DNA of 48,971 bases, taken from NCBI GenBank assembly GCA_016782605.1, contig JADHYE010000004.1:1-48971 (forward strand). The letters run 5' to 3'. Shown in pieces: positions 20,303 through 46,318 of this stretch. The translations under genes and the position numbers were made by a program. This DNA comes from Minisyncoccota bacterium (GTDB lineage Bacteria; Patescibacteriota; Minisyncoccia; Minisyncoccales; RBG-13-42-11). The notes under the pieces are model-generated. The model was given only the letters and a program-made list of their open reading frames with translations, was not told the origin of the DNA and made no database searches. The number at the start of each line of letters is the position of its first letter. The stretch's first letter is position 1.

Positions 20303-20324
20303 GGGGCTGGAAAACGCCAGCCCC
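20303..20324 (-). terminator. GC-rich hairpin downstream of the 20346-21023 gene
   Basis: Stem GGGGCTGG / CCAGCCCC with a 6-nt loop. The T-tract after it is poor. Confidence 0.4.
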
Positions 20325-20345
20325 AAGAGAGAAGTAATATCGAAT

Positions 20346-21023: not shown

Positions 21024-21196
21024 GGTTTTAATTCTTAAATTAATTTTATTCGACCTTTACCGAAGACATAATTTAAATAGGCTCAGATTTGCGAATATTA
21101 AGGTATTATAGCATTGCAAGAGAAACAAAAAAGCTTCCCTGTGGAAAACTTTTATGAGCTCGCGTATATCAGTTGAAACCAGATTATAAAGTTTCT

Positions 21197-21610: not shown

Positions 21611-21629
21611 AGATATAAATAAATTAAAG

Positions 21630-21703
21630 TGGACCCGAGCGGACTCGAACCGCTGACCTCCTCATTGCAAATGAGGCGTTCTAGCCAACTGAACTACGGG
21701 CCC
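21630..21703 (-). tRNA. tRNA-Ala (UGC)
   Basis: Cloverleaf folded by hand. Acceptor GGGCCCG/CGGGTCC includes the G3:U70 Ala identity pair. Anticodon loop TTTGCAA. No encoded CCA. Confidence 0.9.
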
Positions 21704-21708
21704 AAAAC

Positions 21709-21784
21709 TGGTGGGCGGCGAAGGAATCGAACCTTCGACCTCTGCTTTATCAGAGCAGCGTTCTAACCACTGAACTAGCCGCCC
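21709..21784 (-). tRNA. tRNA-Ile (GAU)
   Basis: Cloverleaf folded by hand; anticodon loop CTGATAA; T-loop TTCGATT; CCA is encoded. Confidence 0.9.
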
Positions 21785-22045
21785 AATATATTCCCAGTAT
21801 ATCAAAAAAAAGTTAAAAAACAAGCTTCCATTTATGGAAGCGAAGTTGAAGAGAAGATGAAAACTTCGTTTTCATCGCCTCGCCAAACAAATTAAAAAAT
21901 ACGCTTCCGCGTATTAATTAATTCAGTCACTTGAAGCTGTCCCGAAAGCCAACCTTTAAGGTACGCTGGCCAGCACCTCAGAGTCAAAGAGAGAATTCTT
22001 CCCCTTCAACTCCAGCCGACACTTTGTTCTAATCAAAAAAATTAG

Positions 22046-23990
<1,945 letters not shown>

Positions 23991-33882: not shown

Positions 33883-35794
33883 TTTGGATAATTGTTTTAA
33901 TGGTTTCAACTGTTTCCGGATTGGCCAAAGTGGATAAATCCCCCAATTCCTCGCCACTGAACAATTTCCTCAAAATCCTCCTCATTATCTTTCCTGACCT
34001 GGTCTTTGGCAAGTCTTCAACCAGATAAATTTCCTTTGGCATGGCAATCGGCCCTATTTCTTTTTTAATATGCCCTATCACTTCCTGTTTTACCTGGTCA
34101 GCCGGTTTCTGTCCCTTATAAACCACAAATGCCAAGGGCACTTCTCCTTTTATTTCATCCGGCATACCGATAACAGCGCATTCTGTAATATCAGGATGAT
34201 GATTGATAGCTGCTTCCAGTTCTCCGGTGGAAACCCTGTGGCCTGCCACTTTAATAACATCATCAACCCTGCCGACAATCCTGATCAATCCGTTCTCGTC
34301 CTTAAAAGCGCTATCAGAAGTGAAATATATTTCCTTTCCGTACTGACTCCAGTAGGTATCCAGGTATTTTTCAGGATTCTTGTAAACTCCCCTCAACAAT
34401 CCCGGAGCAAAAGGCGGGAACAAAACCAAGTTTCCCTTTTCATTAACAGAACAAGGCTTTCCTTCTTTGTTCAAAATATCAAACTTCAATCCAGGAAAAG
34501 GCAAACCGGTAAAAGCCGGTTTAAAAGGACCGATTCCTGGCAAAGAGGTAATCAATATTCCGCCTGTTTCTGTCTGCCACCAGGTATCAACAATCGGACA
34601 CTTTTCCTTGCCGATTTCCCTGAAATACCAAAGCCAGGCAGACTCGTCTATCGGTTCGCCAACCGAACCTAAAAGCCGTAAAGTGTCTAATTTACAACTT
34701 TTAAAAACTTCTGCTCCGTTCTTCTCAAACATCCTAATGGCTGTGGGAGCGGTGTAGAAAATAGTTACTTTGTAATCGTCAATAATCTTTGCCCATCTGT
34801 CAGGGCCAGGAGAAATTATCAATCCTTCAAAAATTACAAAGGTTGCCCCGCACAATAAAGGCCCGTAGCAAGAGTAAGTGTGGCCGGTAATCCAGCCGAC
34901 ATCAGCTGTTGACCAGAAAATATCATTATCATGTAAATCAAATATCCATTTTGAAGTGGCATAGGCCTGAACAGCGTATCCTCCGACAACATGCAAACAG
35001 CCTTTGGGTTTGCCTGTTGAGCCTGAGGTGTAAAGAATGAATAAAGGATCTTCAGAATCCATTGGTTCAGCTTCGCAGGAATCTTTCTCGTCTTTAACCA
35101 ATTCATGCCACCATAAATCCCTGCTTTCCTGCCAATTCACCTCATTACCAGCCCTTTTTACCACTACTGTTTTTTCAACAGCCGTATCTTTCAACGATTC
35201 GTCAGCGCCGTTCTTTAAATTAATCAATTTGCCGTTTCTGTAATATCCGTCAGCTGTAATCAAGATTTTTGCTTCAGAATCAATTAAACGACTCTGAAGA
35301 GAGGTCGCTGAAAAAGCGGAAAAAACAACTGCATGGACAGCGCCGATTCTGGCACAGGCCAACATTGAAATTATGACTTCAGGAATCATCGGCATATATA
35401 TGCCTACCCTGTCGCCCTTCCCTATTCCTAGTTTTTTCAAGGCATTGGCGAATTTATTAACTTCCCAAAATAATTCCTGGTAAGTAAATGTTTTTGCTTT
35501 TTCTTCGGTCGGCTCCGGCTGCCAAACCAAAGCTATCTTATCCTTTTTATCCTTTAAATACCTGTCTAAACAGTTTTCAACGATATTGATTTTGCCGTCT
35601 AAAAACCATCTGAAGTAAGGCGCCTGGTGCTCAAAGGCTTTTCCCCATTTTTTTTGCCATTGCAATTCTCCAGCCAGCTTTTCCCAGAATTTAGTCTGGT
35701 CTTTTGCCGCTTCCTTGTAAACCTTATCGTCATTTACCCAGGCTTTTTTCTTGAAGTCTTCAGTCGGATAGTATATGTCTCCTTTTTTAATCAT
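33875..35794 (-). CDS. acs: Acetyl-CoA synthetase (AMP-forming)
   Basis: 639 aa; YTSGSTGKPKG AMP-binding motif and an Acs-type N-terminus. A TATAAT hexamer lies 6 nt upstream of the ATG. Confidence 0.9.
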   Translation of the reverse strand: MIKKGDIYYPTEDFKKKAWVNDDKVYKEAAKDQTKFWEKLAGELQWQKKWGKAFEHQAPYFRWFLDGKINIVENCLDRYLKDKKDKIALVWQPEPTEEKAKTFTYQELFWEVNKFANALKKLGIGKGDRVGIYMPMIPEVIISMLACARIGAVHAVVFSAFSATSLQSRLIDSEAKILITADGYYRNGKLINLKNGADESLKDTAVEKTVVVKRAGNEVNWQESRDLWWHELVKDEKDSCEAEPMDSEDPLFILYTSGSTGKPKGCLHVVGGYAVQAYATSKWIFDLHDNDIFWSTADVGWITGHTYSCYGPLLCGATFVIFEGLIISPGPDRWAKIIDDYKVTIFYTAPTAIRMFEKNGAEVFKSCKLDTLRLLGSVGEPIDESAWLWYFREIGKEKCPIVDTWWQTETGGILITSLPGIGPFKPAFTGLPFPGLKFDILNKEGKPCSVNEKGNLVLFPPFAPGLLRGVYKNPEKYLDTYWSQYGKEIYFTSDSAFKDENGLIRIVGRVDDVIKVAGHRVSTGELEAAINHHPDITECAVIGMPDEIKGEVPLAFVVYKGQKPADQVKQEVIGHIKKEIGPIAMPKEIYLVEDLPKTRSGKIMRRILRKLFSGEELGDLSTLANPETVETIKTIIQND

Positions 35795-35824
35795 TGTTCT
35801 ATTATAACGTAAATCTTTTAAACA

Positions 35825-35855: not shown

Positions 35856-35862
35856 AAACAAT

Positions 35863-35877
35863 ATTAGGAACCTGTTT
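35863..35877. repeat. Junction repeat R0 (right-end motif only)
   Basis: ATTAGGAACCTGTTT, a degenerate copy of the GTTAGAACCTGKTTT motif. It lies 8 nt after the stop codon of the 35886-36248 ORF. Confidence 0.5.
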
Positions 35878-35885
35878 GGAAAAAT

Positions 35886-36248
35886 TTATTCTCCAAACCT
35901 CTTCTTTTGAAGCCAACTTAGAAAGAAAAAAATTGCAACCATAAAGGCCGGTCCCGATATAAAGGCATACCAGGTCCAGTGACGACCAAGTCCAGCCGCA
36001 CAAACATAGAAAACGGCAAAAGCGAAAAAAACAATTGCCCCCACTAAATCATATTTCCAGGAAATTGCAACAACTGCCAGCAAAACAAGTGAAGGTAAAA
36101 GATGCATAAAAAGCGCCAAAACCAAATCCCAACCGGTATATTCTGTAAAAACATCTAAAGCAAATAAAGATAAAAATAAAACAAATGCTATGCTTAAAAT
36201 TCTCGGCAGCCAATGAATAACTTTTCTTTTATTTATAGATATATTCAT
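35886..36248 (-). CDS. Hypothetical polytopic membrane protein (cassette ORF)
   Basis: 120 aa with about 4 TM helices. The start codon lies 6 nt downstream of a TAGAAT hexamer inside repeat R1. Confidence 0.6.
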   Translation of the reverse strand: MNISINKRKVIHWLPRILSIAFVLFLSLFALDVFTEYTGWDLVLALFMHLLPSLVLLAVVAISWKYDLVGAIVFFAFAVFYVCAAGLGRHWTWYAFISGPAFMVAIFFFLSWLQKKRFGE

Positions 36249-36255
36249 ATTTCTA

Positions 36256-36334
36256 TTCTACCAAAAAACCGCCTTTTCTGCAAGGCGGCCAAAATCTGCT
36301 CCCCCTGGGGCTACGGGGCGATGTTAGAACCTGG
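36256..36334. repeat. Junction repeat R1 (family A, full)
   Basis: TTCTACC-A6-CCGCC..GGCGG...CTCCCCCTGGGGCTACGGGGCGAT-GTTAGAACCTGG. Confidence 0.85.
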
Positions 36335-36343
36335 TTAGTAGGA

Positions 36344-36913
36344 CTATAGCAACGTTTTCTCTTTAAATTTCTCTATATCCCGAGGTAATAAAAGAATGGA
36401 AAAATTAGCGTATTTTTGTATACCCAAAGATGGAGAATGGGCAAAGCCAACATATTCAATCTTCTTATTTTTATATTTTACATATCTTACGGCTGGAATT
36501 AAATCAGTATCAGAACTCACTAAAATAGCTGTGTCGTATAAATTATCAACAGCCCCAACGATTAAATCTACTGCAATTTTTACATCGGTTCCTTTTTCTT
36601 TATACACTTTATCAATCGGCATTATTCTGCCACGCTTAATAGCAAAACCATCGTTTTTAAGATTTGAAAAGAATTTTTGTTGTCCACTTACAAGATTTTT
36701 ACTTTTATCGCTTCCGTCGAGATTTCTGAAAACACCCGTGTAATACCTCTTTGAAATAAGCTCTCTTTTATCGCTAACTAAAAAATCTACGAATTCTTTA
36801 AAATTAAACTTTGTTCCTTTCGGAAAATTTATCTCTTTATCTTTTAGATAACCATAAAAATTGCTTCCATCTATATAAACAGCTACTCTTTCTTTTTTAT
36901 TAAAAATATCCAT
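36344..36913 (-). CDS. NYN-domain (LabA/DUF88-like) putative RNase (cassette ORF)
   Basis: 189 aa; VYIDGSNFY near the N-terminus, KGTDVKIAVDL, and LVSSDTDLIPAV, matching the PIN-like NYN catalytic acidic residues. Confidence 0.7.
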   Translation of the reverse strand: MDIFNKKERVAVYIDGSNFYGYLKDKEINFPKGTKFNFKEFVDFLVSDKRELISKRYYTGVFRNLDGSDKSKNLVSGQQKFFSNLKNDGFAIKRGRIMPIDKVYKEKGTDVKIAVDLIVGAVDNLYDTAILVSSDTDLIPAVRYVKYKNKKIEYVGFAHSPSLGIQKYANFSILLLPRDIEKFKEKTLL

Positions 36914-36987
36914 ACAATATGATTATAGAATAACTCTAAATAAAAAACTACCCTTGCCGGAGCAGGAGTAGTGTTCATAGTAAGTAT

Positions 36988-37016
36988 ATATTATCTCTAA
37001 TATATTTTTTTGTCAA
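36988..37016 (-). promoter_or_regulatory. Sigma70-like promoter (TTGACA-N17-TAATAT) upstream of the NYN gene
   Basis: Read on the minus strand. A second TATAAT sits 8 nt before the ATG (rc of 36922-36927). Confidence 0.4.
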
Positions 37017-37026
37017 GTGGAAAACT

Positions 37027-37067
37027 TGGCTCCCCTGGGACTATGGGACGATGTTAAAACCTGTTTT
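37027..37067. repeat. Junction repeat R2 (family A, right half only)
   Basis: TGGCTCCCCTGGGACTATGGGACGATGTTAAAACCTGTTTT. Confidence 0.75.
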
Positions 37068-37120
37068 AGGTAATAAAAAAGCGGTTTGAAGTTATCTCCC
37101 CGCTCTTGATTGCTTCCGTC

Positions 37121-37582
37121 TTAAATGTCTTCGAGATGCAGCTCAATCTTGCCCCTTTTGGGATCCAATATGCCTACAGTTGGTCGTTCCCTTCCTTTTG
37201 TTCCTAAAAGTTGTTCAAGCATATAGTATGTTTGCTCAAGGGTCATTCTCTTTGTTATTTCATTCTTAATTTCGAGCAATGCTTGCTTGTGGGCCGACAA
37301 TAGGTTCCTTATCTTCTGAAGCGTATGTGCATCTTCAGAATTCCAACCTGTAGACAATTCATAACCTTCGACAAACTTGGTAGTTTCATCAATAATATCT
37401 TCTTTTACCATTCGTGCCCAATAGGGACCATCTTCTTCTGCTGCTGACTGTATCCGCTTTTGTTCTTTCAAAACTAAGTCTTTTATTTTTTGGATAACTC
37501 CTCCGCATTCCTGCTCTGTGATTTTCTTTTTTATGTTGGGCGAATCTTTTTTCTCTGTATATCTATTTGGCAGTAAAGCCAT
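37121..37582 (-). CDS. Hypothetical protein (cassette ORF)
   Basis: 153 aa, hydrophilic and helical. Strong SD (AGGAGGA 6 nt before the ATG). Has its own terminator hairpin. No recognisable family. Confidence 0.6.
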   Translation of the reverse strand: MALLPNRYTEKKDSPNIKKKITEQECGGVIQKIKDLVLKEQKRIQSAAEEDGPYWARMVKEDIIDETTKFVEGYELSTGWNSEDAHTLQKIRNLLSAHKQALLEIKNEITKRMTLEQTYYMLEQLLGTKGRERPTVGILDPKRGKIELHLEDI

Positions 37583-37646
37583 TTGGTTTCCTCCTTTTTT
37601 GTTGTTGTTCTGTTCTTAAACTACTAAATTTAATAAAAAAATCAAG

Positions 37647-37734
37647 TTCACTACCAAAAACCGCCCTCTTGTGAAAGCGGCCAAAATCTACTCCCCCTAG
37701 GGCTATGGGGCGATGTTAGAACCTGGTTTCTAAC
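37647..37734. repeat. Junction repeat R3 (family A, full) ending in a perfect 7-6-7 palindrome
   Basis: TTCACTACC-A5-CCGCC...CTCCCCCTAGGGCTATGGGGCGAT-GTTAGAA-CCTGGT-TTCTAAC. Confidence 0.85.
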
Positions 37735-37789
37735 AAAAAACCTACTCGTCATTAAGACTTTCGGTATTAAAATAAAGAACTATAATATT

Positions 37790-38040
37790 AGTCGTGAGAA
37801 GCCGGGGGAACATGCCGACTTCTCACTTGGTGATTCGCCAGCCTCCTAAACGAGAACCATATATTCGAAGAATACAGATCCTTATTAGCCTGAGCCAATC
37901 TTAGGCAAGCTAATCCTAGTGATCACCCCTCCTGTCCTCACTCCGAAACAAAAGGGACTCTAGGACTGGCATAGGGTTAAGAATCTTTATGTTAACATTC
38001 TCAATCCTGTGCCAACCAATAATCTTAGCTTTGTTCAATG
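37790..38040 (-). ncRNA. Candidate structured non-coding RNA in an ORF-less cassette
   Basis: No ORF of 60 aa or more on either strand between repeats R3 and R4. A consensus promoter faces into the region. It ends at an 8+3-bp hairpin GTGAGAAGYCGG..CCGRCTTCTCAC (37794-37826). I cannot assign an RNA class. Confidence 0.3.
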
Positions 38041-38045
38041 GTTAT

Positions 38046-38073
38046 ATTATAGCATATATAAAAATCTTGTCAA
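38046..38073 (-). promoter_or_regulatory. Consensus sigma70 promoter TTGACA-N16-TATAAT
   Basis: Both hexamers are perfect on the minus strand (rc of 38068-38073 and 38046-38051). It abuts repeat R4. Confidence 0.5.
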
Positions 38074-38082
38074 GAGTCTACA

Positions 38083-38167
38083 TCCTACCCAAAAACTGCC
38101 CAATGGCGGTAATTTGTTATCCACAAGCAATAACTCTCCTGGGGCTATGGGGCGATATTAGAACCTG
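38083..38167. repeat. Junction repeat R4 (family A, full, diverged)
   Basis: TCCTACC-CAAAAA-CTGCC..GGCGG...CTCTCCTGGGGCTATGGGGCGAT-ATTAGAACCTG. Confidence 0.8.
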
Positions 38168-38224
38168 TTTTGGATAAAAGAAAACCGCCTCAACTAATTG
38201 AATAGTATATTGGCGGCAGCTCTT

Positions 38225-38602
38225 CTAGTTTAAGAGATTGATAGCGACCAGTCCTATCGCTAAAAGGTGCAAAAGCTGGTCTACGCCGAAAACGATAAGA
38301 TAAATAAAGTTGTCTTTTCCCTTTTTACCTGTCATGACTCTAAACTTTATGCTTTTTCTTGCTATCCAAGCAAGCAAGTCCCATGTCCAGGGTAAATCAA
38401 TAAGCCAATGGGAAATATAGATAAAAAGGAGTCCCGATAAATTAACTTGGAAGTATAAAAATTGAGGGACAAAAAAGAGTGTATAAAGAAGCAAATGTAG
38501 GAAGAACAACTTTCCCTCCCTGAATCTGTGCGTAAGAAAATCTCCTAAACCATGCGCTATCAGACCGAAGAAAATGAACACAGCTACCTCGCAATAATCC
38601 AT
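38225..38602 (-). CDS. Hypothetical membrane protein, DUF3307-like (cassette ORF)
   Basis: The internal ATG at 38602 is preceded by AAAGGAGG at 9 nt (MDYCEVAVF..). HGLGDFLTH and HWLID histidine motifs sit within TM helices. The ORF stays open up to 38647. Confidence 0.55.
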   Translation of the reverse strand: MDYCEVAVFIFFGLIAHGLGDFLTHRFREGKLFFLHLLLYTLFFVPQFLYFQVNLSGLLFIYISHWLIDLPWTWDLLAWIARKSIKFRVMTGKKGKDNFIYLIVFGVDQLLHLLAIGLVAINLLN

Positions 38603-38670
38603 TCCTTCAGACCTCCTTTCCCTTATGCTAATAAAACAATGCCACATTTCTGTGGTATTGTCAATAATTT

Positions 38671-38710
38671 AGCTCCCCTGGGGCTATGGGGCGATGTTAG
38701 AACCTGGTTT
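38671..38710. repeat. Junction repeat R5 (family A, right half only)
   Basis: AGCTCCCCTGGGGCTATGGGGCGATGTTAGAACCTGGTTT. Confidence 0.8.
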
Positions 38711-38755
38711 GAAAAATAATTAATAAAATTTTATTTCAGCATTTTTATAAATTAA

Positions 38756-39391
38756 TTATTCCCAACTTATTTTATATTCATGATAAGGATCTCCCCTAAA
38801 GGTGCATTGTGTTTCTTCCGCTTGAACCTTCTTTTTCCCAATTAATTCAAAAAGTCCTATAAAATATCCTTTTATATATAGACAAACTAAAGGATGGAGC
38901 CCGTATTCTTTTAACCTAAATATTAAATATTTATTAGCTTCGTTAATTTCATGTGGTTCAATTTCTCCATAATCAACGTTTTTATGCCAAAGCTTAGGGG
39001 CTGCCCAAAATGCTGTTTTTGCAGAAACAAGATATTTAAAAGCCATTTTCATAACAAAAGAATGTCTGGGAGAAAACCTTCCCAAATTAACAATATCTTC
39101 ATTATTCCAATTGAACTGTTCTCGAAAAACCAACATAAAAACAGCACAAAAAGGATCCTTATACCATTCATAAGACTTTATATCTCCAAGCATCAAGGGA
39201 TAACCAAGTTCCCTTAATCTGTCCTCCATCTTTTCCACGGCTCTTTCGCCCTCTCTTTTTTTCAAATAAATCAAATTATCTCTTAAAAGCTCACCCCTCA
39301 TACTTCCTTCAATTCTCATTAATATATCTATCTTTTCTTTTAAGGTTTTCCCGTCTTCTATTTCTTTTAATAATTTTTGGCTATCAATCAT
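38756..39391 (-). CDS. Hypothetical protein (cassette ORF)
   Basis: 211-aa intact ORF. No motif I can name with confidence. Confidence 0.55.
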   Translation of the reverse strand: MIDSQKLLKEIEDGKTLKEKIDILMRIEGSMRGELLRDNLIYLKKREGERAVEKMEDRLRELGYPLMLGDIKSYEWYKDPFCAVFMLVFREQFNWNNEDIVNLGRFSPRHSFVMKMAFKYLVSAKTAFWAAPKLWHKNVDYGEIEPHEINEANKYLIFRLKEYGLHPLVCLYIKGYFIGLFELIGKKKVQAEETQCTFRGDPYHEYKISWE

Positions 39392-39423
39392 TTTTTATTT
39401 TTAAATAGTTAATTATTATTCTA

Positions 39424-39500
39424 TTCTACCAAAAAACCGCCCTCTTGTGAAAGCGGCCAAAATCTACTCCCCTGGGGCTATGGGACGATGTTAGAACCTG
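39424..39500. repeat. Junction repeat R6 (family A, full)
   Basis: TTCTACC-A6-CCGCCCTCTTGTGAAAGCGG...CTCCCCTGGGGCTATGGGACGAT-GTTAGAACCTG. Confidence 0.85.
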
Positions 39501-39515
39501 CTTTATTAAGATAAA

Positions 39516-40007
39516 TTAGCTCCTCTTTATTGTTTCATTCCTTAACTTCATCCAAATCTTCCCTAATTCATTTCTTCCGTCTCTTTTCTTGCCCCATCCC
39601 CAAAAATAATCTTTCGGAGAGTCTTCGACAATTTTTCTTTTTCCGGTTTGCAATAACTTATGCATTACATAAGGATTCTGATTTAATTTGTGCCTGAGTA
39701 TGTCTTCCATAATCGCTACTTTTTTCTTTACCCAATTTATTGGATCTTTATGTGCATTCGCGTTGGCAATTCTTTTGGCTTCGTCTGCCGATTTAGCTTT
39801 ATAAATTTTTTCTACCAAATCAGGCGCGGTTTTAAAAAAATGCGCGGCTTGATATGCATGTTCAGAAGTCGGCCATAGCCTTCCATTCCATCTAACTGCA
39901 AAACTGGAAAAGTTAGAAAAACAATAAAATTCTCTTTCGTAAAATCCGACAATTTTACCTGAAGTTTCTAATTGAGGATCTCTATTTTGATATTTTGTTT
40001 TTAACAT
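39516..40007 (-). CDS. NADAR-family (DUF1768/YbiA-like) protein (cassette ORF)
   Basis: 163 aa; FSNFS...W.TSEHAYQA...and C-terminal GRNELGKIWMKLR, matching the NADAR signature pattern. Confidence 0.75.
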   Translation of the reverse strand: MLKTKYQNRDPQLETSGKIVGFYEREFYCFSNFSSFAVRWNGRLWPTSEHAYQAAHFFKTAPDLVEKIYKAKSADEAKRIANANAHKDPINWVKKKVAIMEDILRHKLNQNPYVMHKLLQTGKRKIVEDSPKDYFWGWGKKRDGRNELGKIWMKLRNETIKRS

Positions 40008-40025
40008 ATAAAGTTTGCTGACCGA

Positions 40026-40045
40026 GTGATGCTAGAACTTATTTT
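40026..40045. repeat. Junction repeat R7 (degenerate right-end motif)
   Basis: GTGATGCTAGAACTTATTTT, compared with the consensus GCGATGTTAGAACCTGKTTT. Confidence 0.45.
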
Positions 40046-40058
40046 TTGATAAACTAAC

Positions 40059-40083
40059 GAAAAACCCCTTAAAGGGGTTTTTC
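40059..40083 (-). terminator. Intrinsic terminator of the RRM gene
   Basis: Perfect 11-bp stem GAAAAACCCCT / AGGGGTTTTTC with a 3-nt loop, 6 nt after the stop codon. Confidence 0.7.
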
Positions 40084-40089
40084 AATTTC

Positions 40090-40413
40090 TTACCAGCGAT
40101 CTCTGCTACCTCTGTCAGATCCTCTGTCGCCGCGGTTGAATCCGCCTTGTCTGGGAGCTCTTGGCTCCATCGGACGGGCTTCATTCACGGTAACGTTCCT
40201 GCCTTCGATCTCTTTGCCGTTGAACATTTCAATCGCTTTTTGTGCCTCTTCGTCAGTAGACATTTCTACGAAGCCGAATCCTTTTGAACGGTTGCTCATC
40301 CTGTCTATAATGACGGCTGCCGATTCAACTGTTCCAGCTGCGGAAAAAGTTTCCTTTAAAGTGGCATCGGTGGTGTTGTAAGACAATCCACCTACATATA
40401 ATTTTTTAGCCAT
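40090..40413 (-). CDS. RRM-type RNA-binding protein with an RG-rich tail
   Basis: 107 aa; RNP-2 LYVGGL and RNP-1 KGFGFVEM. GC-richer than the flanking sequence. Confidence 0.85.
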   Translation of the reverse strand: MAKKLYVGGLSYNTTDATLKETFSAAGTVESAAVIIDRMSNRSKGFGFVEMSTDEEAQKAIEMFNGKEIEGRNVTVNEARPMEPRAPRQGGFNRGDRGSDRGSRDRW

Positions 40414-40687
40414 GTTTATTTTAATGATTTTATTATCAGTAAGCCGACCAACTATCTTATTTCTATTCTACGGCTTACTTTTAATAAAACCTCAAAAGAA
40501 ATGCAATAGATACTTACCTTATTATGATAGCTTATTATCAATAAAAAGTCAAGGAGTTATTTTTTACTCCTGTGTTTTTTCTTTAAACCGATTTTGTGGC
40601 GATGCTTTAAAACGAACTTTCTGTGGAGCCGTTTATTTCTGTTTTTGTTCGGATTGCATGAATTTTTCATATAGTTTAATCAATTTT

Positions 40688-40939
40688 CTATCCTTCCTTA
40701 ATGCTTTCTTTTTCTTTCAATACCGAGGAAGTAAGCCATAAAACAAACGGTCTCCTAAGCTTATCTATGGACCAATTATCGTCCTTAAAAAGCGAGGCTT
40801 TTTCCGTTTTAAAGCGGGAAAGTAAAGAAATAGTGGCTTTCAAATTTACCGGAGACAATCTGTTGTGCTCTTCTAAAAACTCCTCTTTCTTTAAGTGTTG
40901 GTTTATAACTTTTTGAACTTTTTTGAATCTTGGAATCAT
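40688..40939 (-). CDS. Hypothetical small protein (cassette ORF)
   Basis: 83 aa from the ATG at 40939; the track start at 40960 is a TTG. A TTGCTC-N17-TATAAT promoter lies upstream. Confidence 0.4.
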   Translation of the reverse strand: MIPRFKKVQKVINQHLKKEEFLEEHNRLSPVNLKATISLLSRFKTEKASLFKDDNWSIDKLRRPFVLWLTSSVLKEKESIKEG

Positions 40940-41058
40940 GTTTTTAAAAATAAAAAACAACTCCTAATAACGGTGAGTCGCAAATAGTACTATTAAGTGT
41001 TTTTAAATGATAATCTAATAACTATTTGTAGTTCAAAACTCTCAAAACCTATATTTCT

Positions 41059-41087
41059 ATTATAGCACTATTCTCTTAAAAGAGCAA
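41059..41087 (-). promoter_or_regulatory. Sigma70-like promoter (TTGCTC-N17-TATAAT)
   Basis: Read on the minus strand upstream of the 40688-40939 ORF. Confidence 0.4.
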
Positions 41088-41132
41088 TCCCAAAAGAAAA
41101 AAATCTCAGACAAGACGTGTCCGCCTATAAAA

Positions 41133-41152
41133 CGATGTTAGGAACCTGTTTT
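41133..41152. repeat. Junction repeat R8 (right-end motif only)
   Basis: CGATGTTAGGAACCTGTTTT, 20 nt after the stop of the hydrolase ORF. Confidence 0.6.
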
Positions 41153-41171
41153 ATGGATATATAAATATAAG

Positions 41172-41744
41172 TTAGAGAAAAACCTTGTCGTGCCTACTTT
41201 TTATAAAAGTAATAACTTTTGGTATAAAATTTTCACTGTTTATTATATTGTCATGATTTGTATCGGGAATCACTATGCCAATATAATCTTTAAGAAGGCC
41301 ACTCTTTCTTGGCCACACCTTTAATTCTGATTCAGGAATAAAATTTACTGTTTCTTCTGGTAATGACACTTTTGCCAGCTCTTTAATTTTTTTTCTAAAA
41401 GGTAATAGTTCCCGGGCTGCAGGAACCATAGTAAGAAATAAGGCCTGCCAACTTCCTCCATGAGGTACAGCTACAAAGATAATACTACTAATGTTTTTCT
41501 TAACTTCTGGATAATGATGAATAATATATTTCAATACAATGCCGCCAAAGCTATGAGCAATAATATCATGTTTTTCAGAAGTTTCTGTGAGTTGTTTTTT
41601 TACTATTTCTGAAGTATTTTTAAGTCCTCGGGTATTTAAGCCCAAATCAATGACTTTAGCAGTAAGCCCCACCTTCTGAAGTTTATTCAATAAAGGATTA
41701 TAGCGTTCTCTTGTCCCGAAAAGTCCTGGAATAATAATAATCAT
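41172..41744 (-). CDS. Small alpha/beta hydrolase (lipase/PGAP1-like) (cassette ORF)
   Basis: 190 aa; AHSFGG nucleophile elbow and N-terminal IIIIPG. A degenerate repeat left arm (CAAAAAACCACCTGATTGGCGATTT) lies just upstream at 41757-41786. Confidence 0.65.
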   Translation of the reverse strand: MIIIIPGLFGTRERYNPLLNKLQKVGLTAKVIDLGLNTRGLKNTSEIVKKQLTETSEKHDIIAHSFGGIVLKYIIHHYPEVKKNISSIIFVAVPHGGSWQALFLTMVPAARELLPFRKKIKELAKVSLPEETVNFIPESELKVWPRKSGLLKDYIGIVIPDTNHDNIINSENFIPKVITFIKSRHDKVFL

Positions 41745-41782
41745 GTTTCCTCGTTATGCAAAAAACCACCTGATTGGCGATT

Positions 41783-42112
41783 TCAATAATTATAAATATT
41801 TATAGAGTTTAATGTTTGATTGAATGAATCCACCAACCTTTCAGTAGACCAAATCGTAACAATTATAGATATTATGGTCAAAATTAAAGCGGCAATACCG
41901 ATTCTTTTTAATTTGCCGTCTTTCTGTTTTAAATATTTCCACACATACCAAAGTCCGAATGGTGGCAAAAATAGACTAACTGCATATACAACTATCTGCG
42001 TTGACAACGATATTGAAGGAGGCCTGTCTCTTTGCGGCTTTCCGCAATTAGGACAAGACAATGCTTCATCAGATATTTCGTGTCCGCATTCTTTGCATTT
42101 TACTAGTGCCAT
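41783..42112 (-). CDS. Zinc-ribbon membrane protein
   Basis: 109 aa; CKECGHEI..CPNCG zinc ribbon followed by two TM helices. Confidence 0.6.
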   Translation of the reverse strand: MALVKCKECGHEISDEALSCPNCGKPQRDRPPSISLSTQIVVYAVSLFLPPFGLWYVWKYLKQKDGKLKRIGIAALILTIISIIVTIWSTERLVDSFNQTLNSINIYNY

Positions 42113-42117
42113 AATTT

Positions 42118-42417
42118 TTAACCCTTTTTGTCTAATTTATCTAATTTCAGCAGTTTAACGCCGAAATAAACGACAAAGGCAATTACGAAAAAATCAATGA
42201 TAACGCTGAGAAAATCTCCCCATAATATTTTTACTTGCCCGACAGCCAAGCTGGCATTTTCCAAACCTTCAACCCTGCCGAGAAAAATACTGAGAGTTGG
42301 GTTTATAATATCTCCGACCAATGCTGACACTAATTTGGAAACAGCGCCGCCCAGAATAAAACCAACTGCCAAACCGACAACGCCCTGTTTCCTTATAAAA
42401 TTAACGAATCCCGACAT
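42118..42417 (-). CDS. mscL: Large-conductance mechanosensitive channel
   Basis: 99 aa; FIRKQGVVGLAVGFILGGA...DIINP, typical of the MscL TM1/periplasmic loop. The C-terminus is short. Confidence 0.8.
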   Translation of the reverse strand: MSGFVNFIRKQGVVGLAVGFILGGAVSKLVSALVGDIINPTLSIFLGRVEGLENASLAVGQVKILWGDFLSVIIDFFVIAFVVYFGVKLLKLDKLDKKG

Positions 42418-42450
42418 ATTTTTAAAGTTAATTAATATTAATTCTTTGTT

Positions 42451-42816
42451 TTACCCTCCCAAACACCCCTTTGCCTTGAAAAAATCAATAGGACCAGGGG
42501 AAGCGCCCCCCATTATTTCTTGTACCCGCTCTGCGCCCAATGTCTCTGTGAAACACTTTTCCATTTCAGGGGTTATTTGTGTGGGCAAACTCCCAACATC
42601 AACACCAATTGTTTCCAATAATCTTTCTTGCTCATTACTAAGCAAAGGATGCTTGTCACCCCCTCCAGTAGTAATTGGAGTATTAGTTTGGAAGCCAGTC
42701 AACAAATTAGACAAAAGTGGCTTTAAATTAAACGGGTCAAGGATAATAAAGATAGCAATGGCAATAATAAGAACAAGGAAAATAATGCCTAATGTTATAA
42801 AGATAGTTTTCAACAT
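42451..42816 (-). CDS. Hypothetical membrane-anchored protein
   Basis: 121 aa; one N-terminal TM helix. No recognisable family. Confidence 0.5.
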   Translation of the reverse strand: MLKTIFITLGIIFLVLIIAIAIFIILDPFNLKPLLSNLLTGFQTNTPITTGGGDKHPLLSNEQERLLETIGVDVGSLPTQITPEMEKCFTETLGAERVQEIMGGASPGPIDFFKAKGCLGG

Positions 42817-42849
42817 ATTTTTAATAATTTATTTTTGACCTTTACGCTA

Positions 42850-42998
42850 TTCTACCACTTCGACAAGTTCAGTGTAAACAAAAAACCGCCGAAATGGCGA
42901 TTTTTATCGTGGCTTGCCCTGAGCGAGCGAAGCGAGTCGAATGGGCTCCCCTGGTTGGACGATGCCTGCCCTGAGTCGCATCGAAGGGTTAGAACCTG
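42850..42998. repeat. Junction repeat R9 (family B, full, with an internal partial duplication)
   Basis: TTCTACC...A6-CCGCCGAAATGGCG-ATTTTTATCGTGGCTTGCCCTGAGCGAGCGAAGCGAGTCGAATGGGCTCC...GCCTGCCCTGAGTCGCATCGAAGG-GTTAGAACCTG. Confidence 0.85.
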
Positions 42999-43011
42999 TT
43001 TAGTGGGATAA

Positions 43012-43518
43012 TTATTTCTTCTTTATCAACTTAAAAGCAAGTTCAACTGCATTTTTGGCACTATTGACACCAATAATCTTCACTTTTTTCTTATTATCCA
43101 TATATTTCCCAATAAAAGGCTCTGGCATTCCTTTGAGACCCTTTATAACTATTATTGGTTTAGAGTACGTATATCCATAAGCCATCTCACAAAAAGTTCC
43201 AACTCCTCCACCAATTGATATTATTGCATCGGCCGAAAAGGCAATTATTTGATTTCTGGCAAATCCTACACCAGTTAAAATTGGTATATCTATGTATTTA
43301 CTGACATTTGTTAAATCGGAATCTGGAGATATCCCAATAGACAACCCTCCATTTTGCTTCGCTCCTTTTGCAACAGCATTAGCTACGCCTCTATTCTTTC
43401 CGCCACATAATACAATACCGCCCCTTAAAGCAATTTCCTTCCCAACCCTTTCAGCAATCTTTAAATGAATTCTTTTTGCGTATTTATCGTGGCCGATAAC
43501 ACTAATTAATTTTTTCAT
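43012..43518 (-). CDS. LOG/TIGR00725-family (SLOG-like Rossmann) protein (cassette ORF)
   Basis: 168 aa from the ATG at 43518. GGGVGTFCE matches the LOG-family PGGxGTxxE motif. The upstream ATG at 43527 lies inside the TAGAAT hexamer of repeat R10. Confidence 0.65.
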   Translation of the reverse strand: MKKLISVIGHDKYAKRIHLKIAERVGKEIALRGGIVLCGGKNRGVANAVAKGAKQNGGLSIGISPDSDLTNVSKYIDIPILTGVGFARNQIIAFSADAIISIGGGVGTFCEMAYGYTYSKPIIVIKGLKGMPEPFIGKYMDNKKKVKIIGVNSAKNAVELAFKLIKKK

Positions 43519-43526
43519 ATACTTCA

Positions 43527-43626
43527 TTCTACCAAAAAACCGCCGGATTGGCGATTTTTATCGTGACTTGCCCTGAGCGAGCGAAGCGAGTCGAATGGGC
43601 TCCCGTAGTCGATCTAGAACCTGTGG
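43527..43626. repeat. Junction repeat R10 (family B, full)
   Basis: TTCTACC-A6-CCGCCGGATTGGCG-ATTTTTATCGTGACTTGCCCTGAGCGAGCGAAGCGAGTCGAATGGGCTCC..GATCTAGAACCTGTGG. Confidence 0.85.
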
Positions 43627-43756
43627 TTTAAGGAGAAAATTAGGGCTTTTTGGGAGTGTCTCACAATGCATCTCGGTCGGGGCTATTTTAAGCTAAAATG
43701 AGACAAATGAAACACTGTAAAGGGGTATGTCGAAGTGTCTCATTTTGAAAGAAATA

Positions 43757-43784
43757 GTCCGCGACCTTGTAACAAGTCGCGGAC
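43757..43784 (-). terminator. Near-perfect palindromic hairpin after the GC-rich two-gene operon
   Basis: GTCCGCGACCTTGT / ACAAGTCGCGGAC with a one-base bulge, followed by a T-rich stretch on the minus strand. Confidence 0.55.
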
Positions 43785-43808
43785 CTTAATCTTCGCTTTT
43801 CTTTCCCT

Positions 43809-44399
43809 TTAATCACCTAGCCAGATGTATGCTGTTGGCCCGAATTCTCTCGTGGATTCAACGATGTGACCTTCCCTCCGAAGGTAGCCAATAGCGCCTC
43901 TGATAGCTTGCCTAGCCCTTTTAATATTGGGCGGATTGCAAAGACGCATAAAATGATTTGGTGTATAACATGAAAGAACACCATCATCGCTGAGAATTTC
44001 ATCAATCGGCACAGGCCTACCTTGCTGTCGTTTTAAGACTTTCATTACGCAACGATATAATTCATGGCCTTCTACGACATAATGCCATCCTCCCCAGTAG
44101 TGCGGGTTTTGTTCCGGCTCTTCTACATCGGGACGATTGTGATTCATCAGTTGTTCCAGAGAATAATTGGAGGTTATCCACACGGCACATTGTACAAATC
44201 CCAACCATCGGAATGCTTTTTCTCTCCGTCCTTCTTTGACAAATTGTTCTATTTTTTTCAGCATTCCGTGACAGTGAGCAAGCCCGTAATCTATAGAATC
44301 AAGTATTAACTCGTGCGGATAGTCAATGGGTTCAATGCCTTTTGTCTCAAAAAACTTGCGATATGTCTGGACCACTTCTAATATTTTCGCATTATCCAT
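43809..44399 (-). CDS. Hypothetical protein (196 aa), second gene of the GC-rich operon
   Basis: SD AAGGAG 6 nt before the ATG. Cys/His/Trp-rich, with a possible winged-helix-like C-terminus (RGAIGYLRREGHIV). No family recognised. Confidence 0.6.
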   Translation of the reverse strand: MDNAKILEVVQTYRKFFETKGIEPIDYPHELILDSIDYGLAHCHGMLKKIEQFVKEGRREKAFRWLGFVQCAVWITSNYSLEQLMNHNRPDVEEPEQNPHYWGGWHYVVEGHELYRCVMKVLKRQQGRPVPIDEILSDDGVLSCYTPNHFMRLCNPPNIKRARQAIRGAIGYLRREGHIVESTREFGPTAYIWLGD

Positions 44400-44409
44400 T
44401 TGCTACTCC

Positions 44410-45135
44410 TTAAGGGTCCTGCTTTTCTTTTACCCACGGTTTCGCCGCTTCTAAAAATCGACGAACTTTCTTTAGGTCAAAGACCTTGTCATTTTCCGAT
44501 CTCAACAAGGTTTCAGCATCAATCCAGATCTGACCGGTGGCCACTTTAGAGATTTTCTCCATTTCTTCCTGCAGATTATCGGGCGAAAGTCCTCCAGCAT
44601 AGCCACAGTATTGATTTGACGGCTGCTTCGGCCATTCGTTTGGCAGTAATCCGATCCCGCCTGATTGGTCGAACAGAGGAAATGCCGCGATTCCCCATCT
44701 AGCGTCCTGGGAATAGAAGATTCTCTCGTTCACGCCATCCATCTGAAAGATGATGGGTTTGTCAGGAAGATATTGCCTGATTAAATCGGAAAATTTCCTG
44801 TCATCGACCGGATGATGCTCGGCATGAAAGTTCAGCTGGAAACGGCTGAACATCTTCCAGGTATATCCGAACTCTTCGAAAAAACTCGGCACACCAAGAC
44901 ATAGGTTTCGCACCCATTCACCGCATATGTGACCAGACAGGGCAAGGTTCTCGTATCGCCACAAGATATACAGTTTCTCCCACCAATTACGGGACGGGAA
45001 TCTCTTATTCCCCTGTTGTTTCTTCGACAATAGGATGCCGAATTCAACAAAGGGATAATCCCTGGCGATCGGAACCAACTCTTCCGGCCGAATGCTGTCG
45101 TCTGCTCCAGTAACAGTAACAACTCTAATAGCCAT
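44410..45135 (-). CDS. Phosphoribosylanthranilate-isomerase (TrpF)-like TIM-barrel protein
   Basis: 241 aa. Motif order matches TrpF: VVTVTGADD (VKICGIT), QLNFH (LQLHG), LFDQSGGIG (LLD..GGTG), YAGGLSPDNL (LAGGLNPDNV), WIDAE (VDVSSGVE). SD AGGAGGGAG is present. No other trp genes are nearby. Confidence 0.5.
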   Translation of the reverse strand: MAIRVVTVTGADDSIRPEELVPIARDYPFVEFGILLSKKQQGNKRFPSRNWWEKLYILWRYENLALSGHICGEWVRNLCLGVPSFFEEFGYTWKMFSRFQLNFHAEHHPVDDRKFSDLIRQYLPDKPIIFQMDGVNERIFYSQDARWGIAAFPLFDQSGGIGLLPNEWPKQPSNQYCGYAGGLSPDNLQEEMEKISKVATGQIWIDAETLLRSENDKVFDLKKVRRFLEAAKPWVKEKQDP

Positions 45136-45200
45136 GTTAATGTGCTCCCTCCTTTCTTTTAGTATCTTCTTTCTACAATATGCCGCAAAAAAGTCAACCC

Positions 45201-45297
45201 ATCTACCAAAAAACCGCCGAAATGGCGATTTTTATCGTGGCTTGCCCTGAGCGAGCGAAGCGAGTCGAATGGGCTCCGGAGGTAGGATTCGAACCTC
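45201..45297. repeat. Junction repeat R11 (family B, terminal copy next to gap)
   Basis: ATCTACC-A6-CCGCCGAAATGGCG-ATTTTTATCGTGGCTTGCCCTGAGCGAGCGAAGCGAGTCGAATGGGCTCC-GGAGGTAGGATTCGAACCTC. The right end has diverged. Confidence 0.8.
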
Positions 45298-45304: not shown

Positions 45305-46318
45305 CTACATCTTATTCCCCACATATCCAGCCATTTCAGCCAGACGACAAGCATAAGCCCATTCGTTATCATACCAGGCAACTATTTTAACCAGATTATC
45401 ATTAGCCATAGTCAAAGAAGCATCAACAATAGCAGAAAAACAGTTTCCCTTGTAATCGGAAGAAACCAAGATAGCGTCCTCCACTCCCAGAATAGCATCT
45501 AAACTCTTTTCCTGGGAAGCTTTTTTGAAAATATAATTTACTTCTTCGGCAGTCGTGCTTTTTTCAACTTCACAAATTAGATCTAAAATCGAAACTACGG
45601 CTGTCGGCACTCTCAAAGCAATTCCATCTAGTTTTCCTTTCAATTCCGGCATTACGTTTCCAATGGCTTTAGCAGCTCCAGTAGTTGTCGGAATAATGTT
45701 CATGGCAGCTGCCCTAGCTCTTCTTAAATCCTTGTGGGGCAAATCAAGAATCCTTTGGTCATTGGTATAGCTGTGAACCGTAGTCATGAATCCTTTGACT
45801 ATCTTGAAGTTTTCGTTCAAAACCTTAGCAATGGGTGCTAAACAATTTGTCGTGCAAGAACCCATATCTATTACTTTGTCTTTTTTAGGGTCAAACTTTT
45901 CTTCATTCACTCCAAGAATGTATGAAGGTATTTTGTCCTGATCTTTGGAAGGAGCGGAAATTATAACTTTTTTTGCACCGGCAGCGATATGCTTTGCAGC
46001 TCCATTATAATCAGTAAAAACACCTGAGCACTCCAGAACAACATCAACACCCAATTCTTTCCAAGGAAGCTTTGCCGGATCTTTCTCAACCAACACTTTT
46101 ATCTGCTTGCCGTCAATAACCAAAGCAGAACCAACAGCCTTAACCGACTTATTATAAATGCCGTACAAAGAATCGTATTTCAAAAGATGGGCTAAGGTAG
46201 CAGCGTCCGTCAAATCATTAATGGCCACCACTTCCAAATCCTTGTGCTTTTCTAAAAGCCTTCTGAGTGTCGGCCGGCCGATCCGGCCAAAACCGTTGAT
46301 TGCGATTTTTACAGCCAT
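45305..46318 (-). CDS. gap: Glyceraldehyde-3-phosphate dehydrogenase
   Basis: 337 aa; INGFGRIGR, and the active-site SCTTNCLAP. Confidence 0.95.
   Translation of the reverse strand: MAVKIAINGFGRIGRPTLRRLLEKHKDLEVVAINDLTDAATLAHLLKYDSLYGIYNKSVKAVGSALVIDGKQIKVLVEKDPAKLPWKELGVDVVLECSGVFTDYNGAAKHIAAGAKKVIISAPSKDQDKIPSYILGVNEEKFDPKKDKVIDMGSCTTNCLAPIAKVLNENFKIVKGFMTTVHSYTNDQRILDLPHKDLRRARAAAMNIIPTTTGAAKAIGNVMPELKGKLDGIALRVPTAVVSILDLICEVEKSTTAEEVNYIFKKASQEKSLDAILGVEDAILVSSDYKGNCFSAIVDASLTMANDNLVKIVAWYDNEWAYACRLAEMAGYVGNKM

Follow-up and report, generated by a model that had tools for sequence, protein, structure and literature searches.

A sedentary array of small gene modules delimited by a lineage-wide, tRNA-like core in a Patescibacteria chromosome

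The stretch analysed here, 48,971 nt of contig JADHYE010000004.1 (hereafter the window), comes from an organism whose closest relatives are metagenome-assembled genomes (MAGs) of Patescibacteria, also known as the candidate phyla radiation (CPR); its acs product is 96% identical in amino acids to that of CAYZSL. Between acs (33875-35794) and gap (45305-46318) lies an interval of small genes separated by copies of a short intergenic sequence that we call the core. A first-pass annotation had placed in this interval 15 functionally unrelated open reading frames (ORFs), all on the minus strand, and ORF calls and Pfam scans bear this out. From gap towards acs, they encode proteins of 241 and 196 aa, a SLOG/LOG protein, a 121-aa protein, MscL, a Zn-ribbon transmembrane (TM) protein, an alpha/beta hydrolase, a 90-aa protein, an RRM protein, NADAR, a V4R-like and a DUF3307-like protein and then, beyond an ORF-free module (37735-38080), a 153-aa protein, NYN and DUF7670. 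Their Pfam matches are mutually unrelated and in some cases weak, and 5 of the 15 ORFs have no match. The single orientation and the arrangement of one or a few small unrelated genes per repeat were also as described; the heterogeneity of GC content and Shine-Dalgarno (SD) usage between segments was seen, in qualitative terms only. We read the interval as a sedentary array in which copies of a core that recurs across the lineage separate small gene modules on a Patescibacteria chromosome.

On the gene strand, a full repeat unit consists of the stop codon of the upstream gene, the core, a G+C-rich hairpin with a T-run (CCGCC...GGCGG), the element TGGTAGAAT and the next ATG. The core itself is 26-34 nt long and reads AAACAGGTTCTAACATCG(T/C)CCC(A/G)TAG plus a tail of ~8 nt. 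The hairpin is a predicted intrinsic terminator of the upstream module, and TGGTAGAAT matches the consensus of an extended -10 promoter element, often 6-7 nt ahead of the ATG. In most units the terminator is followed by TGGTAGAAT or by a TTGACA-type promoter, both consensus matches, directly before the next ORF. Terminator-like sites numbered 28 against 8.6 +/- 3.1 expected (among them 36267-36290 and 39435-39458), and the promoter scan selects 39451-39423, 42878-42849 and 43554-43526, each with a TG. This terminator-promoter part is predicted to make every module an insulated transcription unit.

The repeat families A and B of the first-pass annotation were recovered by a repeat search where it had placed them, and the repeat is real and confined to the interval. 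With up to 3 mismatches, GATGTTAGAACCTGKTT has 8 matches against 0.34 expected, and TTCTACCAAAAAACCRCC has 6 against 0.28, all on the plus strand and all within 35.8-45.3 kb. A core profile finds six strong and several degenerate copies there (Table 1) and none in the remaining ~39 kb of the window; 11 of the 15 intergenic gaps inside the interval carry a core, against 0 of 38 outside (Fisher p ~2e-8, a rough value as the gaps were counted by hand). The proposed composite repeat indeed has three parts, namely core, terminator and promoter, but only the stop-proximal end of ~26-34 nt is conserved beyond this genome. Family B is an ordinary unit with a 40-nt insert, and its copy at 45201-45297, which had been credited with both repeat ends, carries AGGTTCGAATCCTACCTCCGGAG in place of a core. 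The supposed inverted-repeat termini, TTCTACC and GTTAGAA, are really the TAGAA of the promoter and the TTCTAAC of the core, respectively; since the TTCTACC terminus is the -10 promoter element, its complementarity to GTTAGAA is incidental.

Table 1. Features of the acs-gap interval in window coordinates, listed from gap to acs; terminators and promoters are predictions.
Feature	Position	Strand	Remarks
Cargo, 15 small ORFs	35886..45135	-	ORF calls and Pfam
tRNA-Asn 3'-end-like fragment AGGTTCGAATCCTACCTCCGGAG	45274..45296	-	9 nt past gap stop codon; in the core's place at the gap-proximal array edge
Family-B unit 1, remainder	45201..45273	-	40-nt insert 45234-45273; hairpin CGCCATTTCGGCG 45215-45227 with T-run; GGTAGAT
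Family-B unit 2, degenerate core ACAGGTTCTAGATCGACTACGGGAGC	43599..43626	-	
Family-B unit 2, rest	43523..43598	-	insert 43560-43599; terminator 43541-43553 with T-run; TGGTAGAAT promoter, TCGCCA-17-TAGAAT with TG (43554-43526), extending into LOG/SLOG gene start
Split core AAACAGGTTCTAAC / CCTTCGATGCGACTCAGGGCAGGC / ATCGTCCAACCAGGGGAGC	42945..43001	-	CCTTCGATGCGACTCAGGGCAGGC is a 24-nt insertion (42964-42987)
Family-B unit 3	42849..42944	-	insert 42906-42945; terminator 42887-42899 with T-run; TTTACA-18-TGGTAGAAT (42878-42849)
Degenerate core AAAACAGGTTCCTAACATCGTTTTATAGGCGGAC	41119..41152	-	behind alpha/beta-hydrolase ORF; nhmmer 14 bits
Degenerate core	40017..40045	-	behind RRM gene and that gene's terminator
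Core, 44 bits	39471..39504	-	behind NADAR; then terminator 39435-39458 and TGGTAGAAT (-10 at 39428-39423)
Core, 41 bits	38677..38710	-	behind V4R-like gene; then promoter module with palindrome TTGACAATACCACAGAAATGTGGCATTGT (38664-38636), SD
Core, 41 bits	38138..38171	-	~55 nt past DUF3307-like gene, beyond its terminator
Core, 39 bits	37696..37729	-	behind ORF-free module; then hairpin 37661-37682 and degenerate -10
Core, 42 bits	37034..37067	-	behind ORF 37121-37582 and its terminator
Core, 40 bits	36304..36337	-	behind NYN; then terminator 36267-36290 and TGGTAGAAT (-10 at 36260-36255)
Degenerate core remnant	35861..35877	-	behind DUF7670; then terminator and acs promoter

The core is not a peculiarity of this genome. 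An exact-pattern scan of species-representative genomes returned 18 stretches from at least 10 Patescibacteria MAGs, including Nealsonbacteria, Wildermuthbacteria and 'Patescibacteria group', with several contigs per genome and at most 6 exact-match copies per representative genome. A metagenome scan gave 92 further core-bearing stretches, bringing the total to >100 Patescibacteria contigs; the same scan of viral contigs (IMG/VR) gave 0 matches, so that IMG/VR offers no evidence for a phage attP. The portion shared across genomes is only AAACAGGTTCTAACATCGTCCC(A/G)TAG with a semi-conserved tail (CCCCAGC or GCGGAGC); the sequence 3' of the core varies or is absent elsewhere, and the next ATG then lies 13-22 nt away. 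We collected comparison loci (labelled L001-L122), and a profile search found 214 core copies in 110 loci, with mixed orientation in none of the 52 multi-copy loci. Strong cores are intergenic in 170 of 175 cases; a co-oriented stop codon precedes them at a median distance of 28 nt, often with the upstream gene's own terminator in between, and adjacent cores are spaced by a median of 697 bp. The genes ahead of them (97 non-redundant ORFs, median 149 aa) are diverse and include NUDIX, HAD, Ser hydrolases, methyltransferases, NADAR, NYN and AbiGi; no transposase or other mobility gene is found among the 97. Gene families that recur near cores are ABC/MacB, NUDIX, HAD, NYN, Ser hydrolase, EngB and DnaX, and no mobility gene does so. 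In the searchable literature, we found no description of the core motif, or of integrons in these bacteria. A second intergenic motif, GACCGAGAYGS, often in a short hairpin, occurs 41 times forward and 0 times reverse in core-oriented loci (L006-L115), 32-83 nt before or ~20 nt after cores.

The comparison of syntenic intervals revealed that array content is not invariant among relatives, which differ by whole core-bounded modules, a consequence that fits the cassette-like architecture described in the first-pass annotation. L009/L071 and L087 share the acs-PPDK flank of the window and carry different arrays. Between the window and L009 (acs 96% amino-acid identity), three modules (1865 bp) are present or absent: in L009/L071 the DUF3307 gene is directly followed by DUF7670, without the ncRNA-like, 153-aa and NYN modules, and four unrelated ORFs stand further up. 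L087, 88-94% identical in nucleotides, is without the hydrolase module (gene and core 41119-41152) and has two other small ORFs in place of six window modules (3.7 kb). Homology blocks between the window and its relatives begin or end at cores; that with L087 (94%) stops at the 3' edge of the core at 40017-40045, and that with L009 begins at the 5' edge of the core at 38677-38710. Comparable observations were made away from this locus. L019 and L040, whose contexts are otherwise unrelated, share a three-ORF module of 1077 bp at 99.4% identity, and its end falls at core position 34; homology between L082 and L088 and between L061 and L062 ends at core positions 34-36, and other pairs start at position 3. 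Moreover, L061 and L062 (98-100% identity) differ by a clean 930-bp single-ORF indel, the module in L061 being flanked by an 86-nt direct repeat that ends in AAACAGGTTCTAACATCGTCCCATAG. Cores are recombination junctions, at which breakpoints lie, some junctions falling instead in other shared intergenic modules.

Within the sampled population, the array is stable: strain-level contigs retrieved through gap, acs, the hydrolase and NYN all keep the window gene order. Short-read contigs of the same strain (L003, L004, L001/L002) end right after gap or near window position ~40.5 kb; assemblies therefore tend to break in the array, and MAGs may contain too few such arrays or only pieces of them.

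Orthologous core copies decay in place. Those of the window and L009 are 84-92% identical, compared with 86-89% for their flanks, and the core of L082/L088 has 2 mismatches in 24 where the flanks are 100% identical; the latter is a test on one usable pair, because alignments nearly always stop at cores. At least 5 decayed copies are present in the window. As orthologous copies diverge as fast as their flanks, in a neutral-like decay, the consensus is kept by spread and not by constraint in place. A consensus that is near-invariant across genera despite such decay requires a source of fresh copies, i.e. mobile DNA.

The core is linked to tRNA genes by position and by sequence. In ~20 loci a tRNA gene of the same orientation stands within 4 kb upstream of a core, against only 2 tRNA genes on the opposite strand; 10 of the ~20 are tRNA-Gln genes, at the conserved dnaX-tRNA-Gln locus. 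Arrays in relatives (~20 loci) stand directly behind tRNA-Gln, tRNA-Asn or tRNA-Tyr, and the same modules stand downstream of tRNA 3' ends and of cores. Core positions 6-28 have the length and layout of a T-arm plus acceptor 3' strand, and align best with tRNA-Gln 3' ends (score 11; other isotypes at most 8). In a directed test against tRNA 3' ends, this score was reached by none of 1000 shuffles, and by 6 of 1000 when CAGGTTC was held fixed; in an undirected comparison of the core with tRNAs on both strands the similarity was not significant, 28 of 300 shuffles reaching the score. In the window, the evidence consists of the tRNA-Gln-like cores and the 23-nt fragment AGGTTCGAATCCTACCTCCGGAG at the gap edge, which shares 22 of 23 nucleotides with the tRNA-Asn 3' end of L036. 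There, an intact tRNA-Asn heads the array and is followed by the same downstream module as stands behind cores in that locus.

One enzyme was found at such sites. L049 contains, antisense to its array, a large serine recombinase (LSR) gene (7031-8506) with Resolvase, Recombinase and Zn_ribbon_recom domains, whose last codons (..EMSTGRL*) are the complement of a core, AAACAGGTTCTAA joined to AGTCGTCCCGTAG. The element is 5.5 kb long and closes at the next canonical core. Homologues of this LSR are abundant in Parcubacteria: the best 120 matches are 48-100% identical and mostly ~490-505 aa long. Genes of this family overlap at their 3' end with that of the target tRNA or, in two cases, with a core-type site. 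The C-terminus reads as tRNA antisense in 91 of these 120 (e.g. ..EMLRDLDSNQD), the residues DSN corresponding to GATTCGAAC, the complement of the T-loop. In L116/L118 and L121, dnaX and tRNA-Gln are followed by a convergent LSR gene whose 3' end overlaps that of the tRNA and, beyond it, by a Rep gene and/or a restriction-modification system. Past the element, the tRNA strand carries one core in L116 and four in L121, where they separate small genes including a DUF7670 homologue and where a tRNA-Gln-like fragment marks the distal end; the distal boundary of these tRNA-Gln-integrated elements is a core rather than a host tRNA end. In L120 the LSR 3' end is antisense to an entire tRNA-Gln(ctg), and in L119 the LSR sits on a tRNA-Gln 3' fragment. 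The second core-type case is L122, where an LSR 83% identical to that of L049 occupies the site AAACAGGTTCTAA joined to TCCAGTCC, within an array. On the host side of the junction, both L049 and L122 have the canonical AAACAGGTTCTAA, joined directly after TTCTAA to element-specific sequence, and the break in the window's split core falls 1 nt from this host/element junction.

Several further features of these elements were recorded. Defence-type cargo is carried by L049 (9870-12074: an N6/N4 methylase-Mrr fusion and a HEPN protein) and L116 (3635-5961: a CfrBI-type restriction-modification pair). An RVT_1 reverse-transcriptase ORF (2034-3566) lies near the LSR element of L119, and the host-side arm of the LSR junction in that locus has the GACCGAGAYGS sequence.

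We consider it somewhat better than an even bet (probability about 0.55) that tRNA 3' ends and pseudo-tRNA cores were the sites of module capture. The most probable agent would be serine-recombinase elements that target tRNAs, or else modules mobilised by these elements in trans. Capture would proceed successively, at a tRNA 3' end or at an existing core, and each event would add another core copy in the same orientation while old copies decay. The core mimics the T-arm and acceptor 3' end of tRNA-Gln and would serve as the recombination junction. The most likely enzyme would be a member of the Parcubacteria-wide LSR family, encoded on small integrative elements with a Rep gene and an LSR and acting in cis or in trans. 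We infer that LSRs recombine cores and that the array of the window was built in this way. A more far-reaching version, which we put forward only tentatively, is that Parcubacteria possess an analogue of the integron, in which single-gene modules with a ~30-bp pseudo-tRNA(Gln) site are captured, stacked and exchanged by an LSR supplied in trans from Rep+LSR elements, arrays nucleating at tRNAs and seeding others such as that between gap and acs.

A number of observations weigh against capture by LSRs. Only two LSR elements, with recombinases 83% identical to each other, stand on core-type sites, and no empty site was found for either of them. An LSR occurs in only 1 of the 110 core-selected loci, and the 49-kb window contains no LSR, no Rep gene and no remnants of either. 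The canonical core tail (CCCCAGC or GCGGAGC) corresponds neither to the 3' end of a host tRNA nor to the antisense of an LSR gene, and the core has no obvious dyad symmetry. The negative recombinase searches were run with probe sequences that may be inexact. Some breakpoints fall in other shared intergenic modules, for example the terminator-promoter part in L014/L030 and in L009/window or a 22-nt duplication around an ORF in L019, and RecA recombination on short repeats explains these non-core breakpoints equally well. The L019 case is another kind of precise indel: relative to L040 (3731-3785), the insert in L019 (491-1150) comprises a 194-aa ORF, beginning precisely at the ATG and stopping shortly beyond the stop codon, and is flanked by the ~22-nt duplication, CCAAAATTTCCCTTAAAATT, with no core. 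Finally, exact-protein look-ups with gap, acs, the hydrolase and NYN revealed no ongoing rearrangement in strain-level contigs.

The strongest competitor, unlikely in our judgement, holds that cores and the other short conserved modules are non-autonomous mosaic intergenic repeats or regulatory signals, built up in a variable island, of the type of repetitive extragenic palindromes (REP), bacterial interspersed mosaic elements (BIME) or neisserial intergenic mosaic elements (NIME), and that modules are exchanged by RecA on 26-90-nt repeats, perhaps after transformation, without a dedicated recombinase. Several intergenic modules do combine (the core, GACCGAGAYGS, the terminator-promoter part and the palindrome promoter), breakpoints also fall inside those other than the core, the 86-nt repeat around the L061 insert suffices for homologous recombination, and 109 of 110 core loci have no recombinase nearby. 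However, each genome has few copies, and these form clusters and all face the same way, in contrast to REP/BIME; the fallback of the first-pass annotation, a proliferating REP or miniature inverted-repeat transposable element, thus fits only in part. The core has no palindromic hairpin, and apart from the L049 LSR no IS200/IS605 TnpA (Y1), REP-associated tyrosine transposase (RAYT) or small serine recombinase was found in the ~710 kb around cores. Moreover, this explanation leaves the tRNA-Gln association and the LSRs on core-type sites unaccounted for, and a near-invariant cross-genus consensus whose copies decay in place demands a source of fresh ones.

We regard as improbable that another host recombinase acts in trans, whether Xer, on dif-like sites such as those of the Acinetobacter pdif modules, or some enzyme not recognised so far. 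The core is short, conserved and about the size of dif, it lacks a linked recombinase, and a weak 11-7-11 dyad can be drawn in it with 6 of 11 positions symmetric. This dyad is at chance level and is lost in the GCGGAG variant, and inspection by eye led us to drop it; the sites are direct repeats and do not alternate, and the sole recombinase found on a core is a serine recombinase.

Equally hard to sustain, and a shade less probable, is an RNA-level element in 3' untranslated regions or between cistrons, which might for example be processed in the way of tRNA-like punctuation, stabilise the transcript, bind a protein or signal antitermination. The strict co-orientation with genes, the position right behind stop codons, the tRNA-like sequence and the terminator that usually follows would all suit such a role. 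However, no conserved secondary structure was detected, the T-stem equivalents being unpaired, and Rfam 15 scans of the window and 19 array loci, by gathering threshold and by E-value, matched only rRNAs and tRNAs. Many cores lie behind the upstream gene's own terminator and therefore outside that gene's transcript. Orthologous copies are not conserved above their flanks, and homology between relatives breaks at cores, which is a property of DNA. By eye, a split or punctuating tRNA-like RNA was dropped for lack of pairing, as were boxA or ops antitermination signals (weak similarity), sigma54, extracytoplasmic-function sigma factor and T7-like promoters (poor spacing or matches), DNA-uptake sequences (wrong density and orientation) and a C-terminal read-through peptide (weak frame bias only).

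The first-pass annotation had favoured an integron cassette array or a cluster of attC sites lacking integron-integrases (CALIN). A genuine one, in which an IntI from another part of the genome would act on the repeats as attC sites in folded, single-stranded form, we now find very improbable. This reading draws on the single orientation, the small unrelated ORFs, the repeat that begins just past stop codons, the cassette-level variation among relatives and the TTCTAAC sequence, which fits RYYYAAC at 6 of 7 positions. The supposed R' box, GGTAGAA, fits GTTRRRY at 5 of 7 and is the -10 promoter element, missing or different in many copies from other genomes. When seven full units were folded as single-stranded DNA on both strands, no attC-like, end-to-end stem was obtained and z-scores against shuffles were not significant (-1.6 to +0.9). 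Only the terminator hairpin is stable in these folds, the unit ends pairing weakly through a 4-5-bp outer stem in the minimum-free-energy (MFE) structure of 1 unit and the centroids of 2. As there were also no L boxes and no extrahelical-base geometry, the attC reading was rejected. When XerC and IntI1 were compared by phmmer with the 1510 ORFs (at least 70 aa) of the window and 115 loci (~710 kb), no tyrosine recombinase was obtained at E<=1, and Pfam scans of array and flank ORFs gave no Phage_integrase. Nothing folds like attC and no IntI is present in the sequence searched; the array is therefore not an integron. The core resembles a tRNA 3' end, and most modules come with a predicted promoter and terminator. 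Both the architecture and the evolutionary behaviour of the array recall integrons, but it fails every structural criterion of an integron.

Compared with known systems, the arrays share with integrons and CALINs the co-oriented, small, diverse and mostly uncharacterised genes, each followed at or just past its stop codon by a recombination-associated repeat that is homogeneous within a genome, and relatives differ by whole cassettes while the array is sedentary within a population. They differ in the site, which is ~30 bp and tRNA-3'-end-like in arrays of the window type and 57-141 nt and folded in attC; in the enzyme, the sole one linked here being an LSR and not IntI; in transcription, modules here usually having a promoter and terminator of their own whereas integron cassettes depend on Pc; and in their starting point, often a tRNA gene and not attI. 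Tandem islands at tRNA genes are the other obvious parallel. She et al. are said to have described 'gene capture' at archaeal tRNA genes in 2001, and Williams reportedly described tRNA sublocation preferences in 2002. Such islands have a tRNA at one end, as ~20 of the array loci in relatives do, and probably share with the arrays the co-oriented partial tRNA-3'-like repeats between captured segments, an integrase gene that adjoins or overlaps the att site, and the decay of integrases while cargo stays. However, their enzyme is a tyrosine recombinase and ours probably a serine recombinase; the repeat here is a lineage-wide consensus pseudo-tRNA site and not a copy of the host's own tRNA end; the modules are mostly single small genes ~0.5-1.4 kb apart; and arrays also occur away from any intact tRNA, such as that between gap and acs.

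The Parcubacteria LSRs resemble those of phages and integrative and conjugative elements (phiC31, Bxb1, TP901-1 and CcrAB types) in their Resolvase, Recombinase and Zn_ribbon_recom domains, in the position of the gene at the element edge next to the att site and in their restriction-modification or defence cargo. Unlike these, the family targets tRNA 3' ends, so that the ORF as called runs on into the antisense of the tRNA. The family is accompanied by small Rep genes (REP_ORF2-G2P or Phage_rep_O) and, as far as sampled, is confined to Parcubacteria. REP/BIME of E. coli and the NIME/dRS3 and Correia elements of Neisseria are likewise short conserved intergenic elements in mosaic combination that carry terminators or promoters, often at gene 3' ends. 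REP/BIME are recognised by an imperfect palindrome with 5' GTAG, dispersed in hundreds of copies that face either way, and by a RAYT gene, whereas the core has neither a palindromic hairpin nor a RAYT, and its copies number tens and not hundreds per genome, are clustered in islands, are 100% co-oriented and coincide with module boundaries. The pdif modules of Acinetobacter plasmids also consist of small gene modules between ~28-bp sites without a linked recombinase, whose enzyme would therefore come in trans; in contrast to those alternating XerC/D dyads on plasmids, the sites here are asymmetric, directly repeated and chromosomal. Thus tandem capture at tRNA genes and LSR integrases are both of known kinds. 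The new feature is a pseudo-tRNA site, shared across the lineage, by which arrays are divided into mostly single-gene modules, some of these arrays being detached from any tRNA; no description of a repeated pseudo-tRNA site used inside gene arrays was found in the searchable literature.

Other features of the window deserve mention. The 40-nt element CCCATTCGACTCGCTTCGCTCGCTCAGGGCAAGCCACGAT of the family-B units is present in three window copies that are 97.5-100% identical and in none of ~120 other loci, and the 24-nt piece inside the split core is related to it; it looks like a tiny, recently spread insertion element. The promoter module TTGACAATACCACAGAAATGTGGCATTGT, with a 14-20-bp palindrome in its spacer, stands ahead of unrelated genes in L009, L008, L024, L048 and L087, and the module may be the shared operator of some regulator. 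The ORF-free module is ~300 nt overall, with a 12/12 promoter TTGACA-16-TATAAT (38073-38046), an end hairpin with a U-run and an MFE of -101 kcal/mol; it has no Rfam family match and no copy among the fetched loci, and is a candidate novel non-coding RNA (ncRNA). No SD was seen ahead of DUF7670, acs and LOG, whose -10 boxes (36255-36260, 35801-35806, the latter TATAAT, and 43526-43531) lie only 6-7 nt before the start codons (36248, 35794 and 43518; 6 nt for the first two); because of this spacing their mRNAs are likely leaderless, which suggests that leaderless mRNAs are frequent in this organism. Other cassettes have strong SDs (the 241-aa ORF, the DUF3307-like gene and the 153-aa ORF). The 23S rRNA gene (16628-20032, minus strand) is 3405 nt long against a model of 2925 nt and encloses a LAGLIDADG homing-endonuclease ORF (17382-17957), which points to an intron; a second LAGLIDADG ORF (16095-16541) lies between the 23S and 5S genes. 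Long rRNA insertions with LAGLIDADG ORFs are a trait typical of CPR. The 16S-23S spacer (20033-22564; ~2.5 kb) is unusual in content for an rRNA operon, holding in addition to tRNA-Ile and tRNA-Ala two ORFs, one with a mechanosensitive-channel TM helix (20346-21023) and one without Pfam match (21197-21610).

The genomes of CPR/Patescibacteria are tiny, and the routes by which they gain accessory genes are little known. A general caution from this locus is that an integron-like architecture does not by itself identify an integron. Our results point to a concrete, sequence-defined mechanism of gene gain, in which a ~30-bp tRNA-like site bounds exchangeable single-gene modules, and to a candidate enzyme family, the tRNA-targeting LSRs of Rep-bearing elements, whose compact natural target sites could interest tool builders. 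If the mechanism is as proposed, it would constitute a second, independently evolved cassette-array system beside integrons, and the core motif would be a marker for variable accessory islands in CPR metagenomes.

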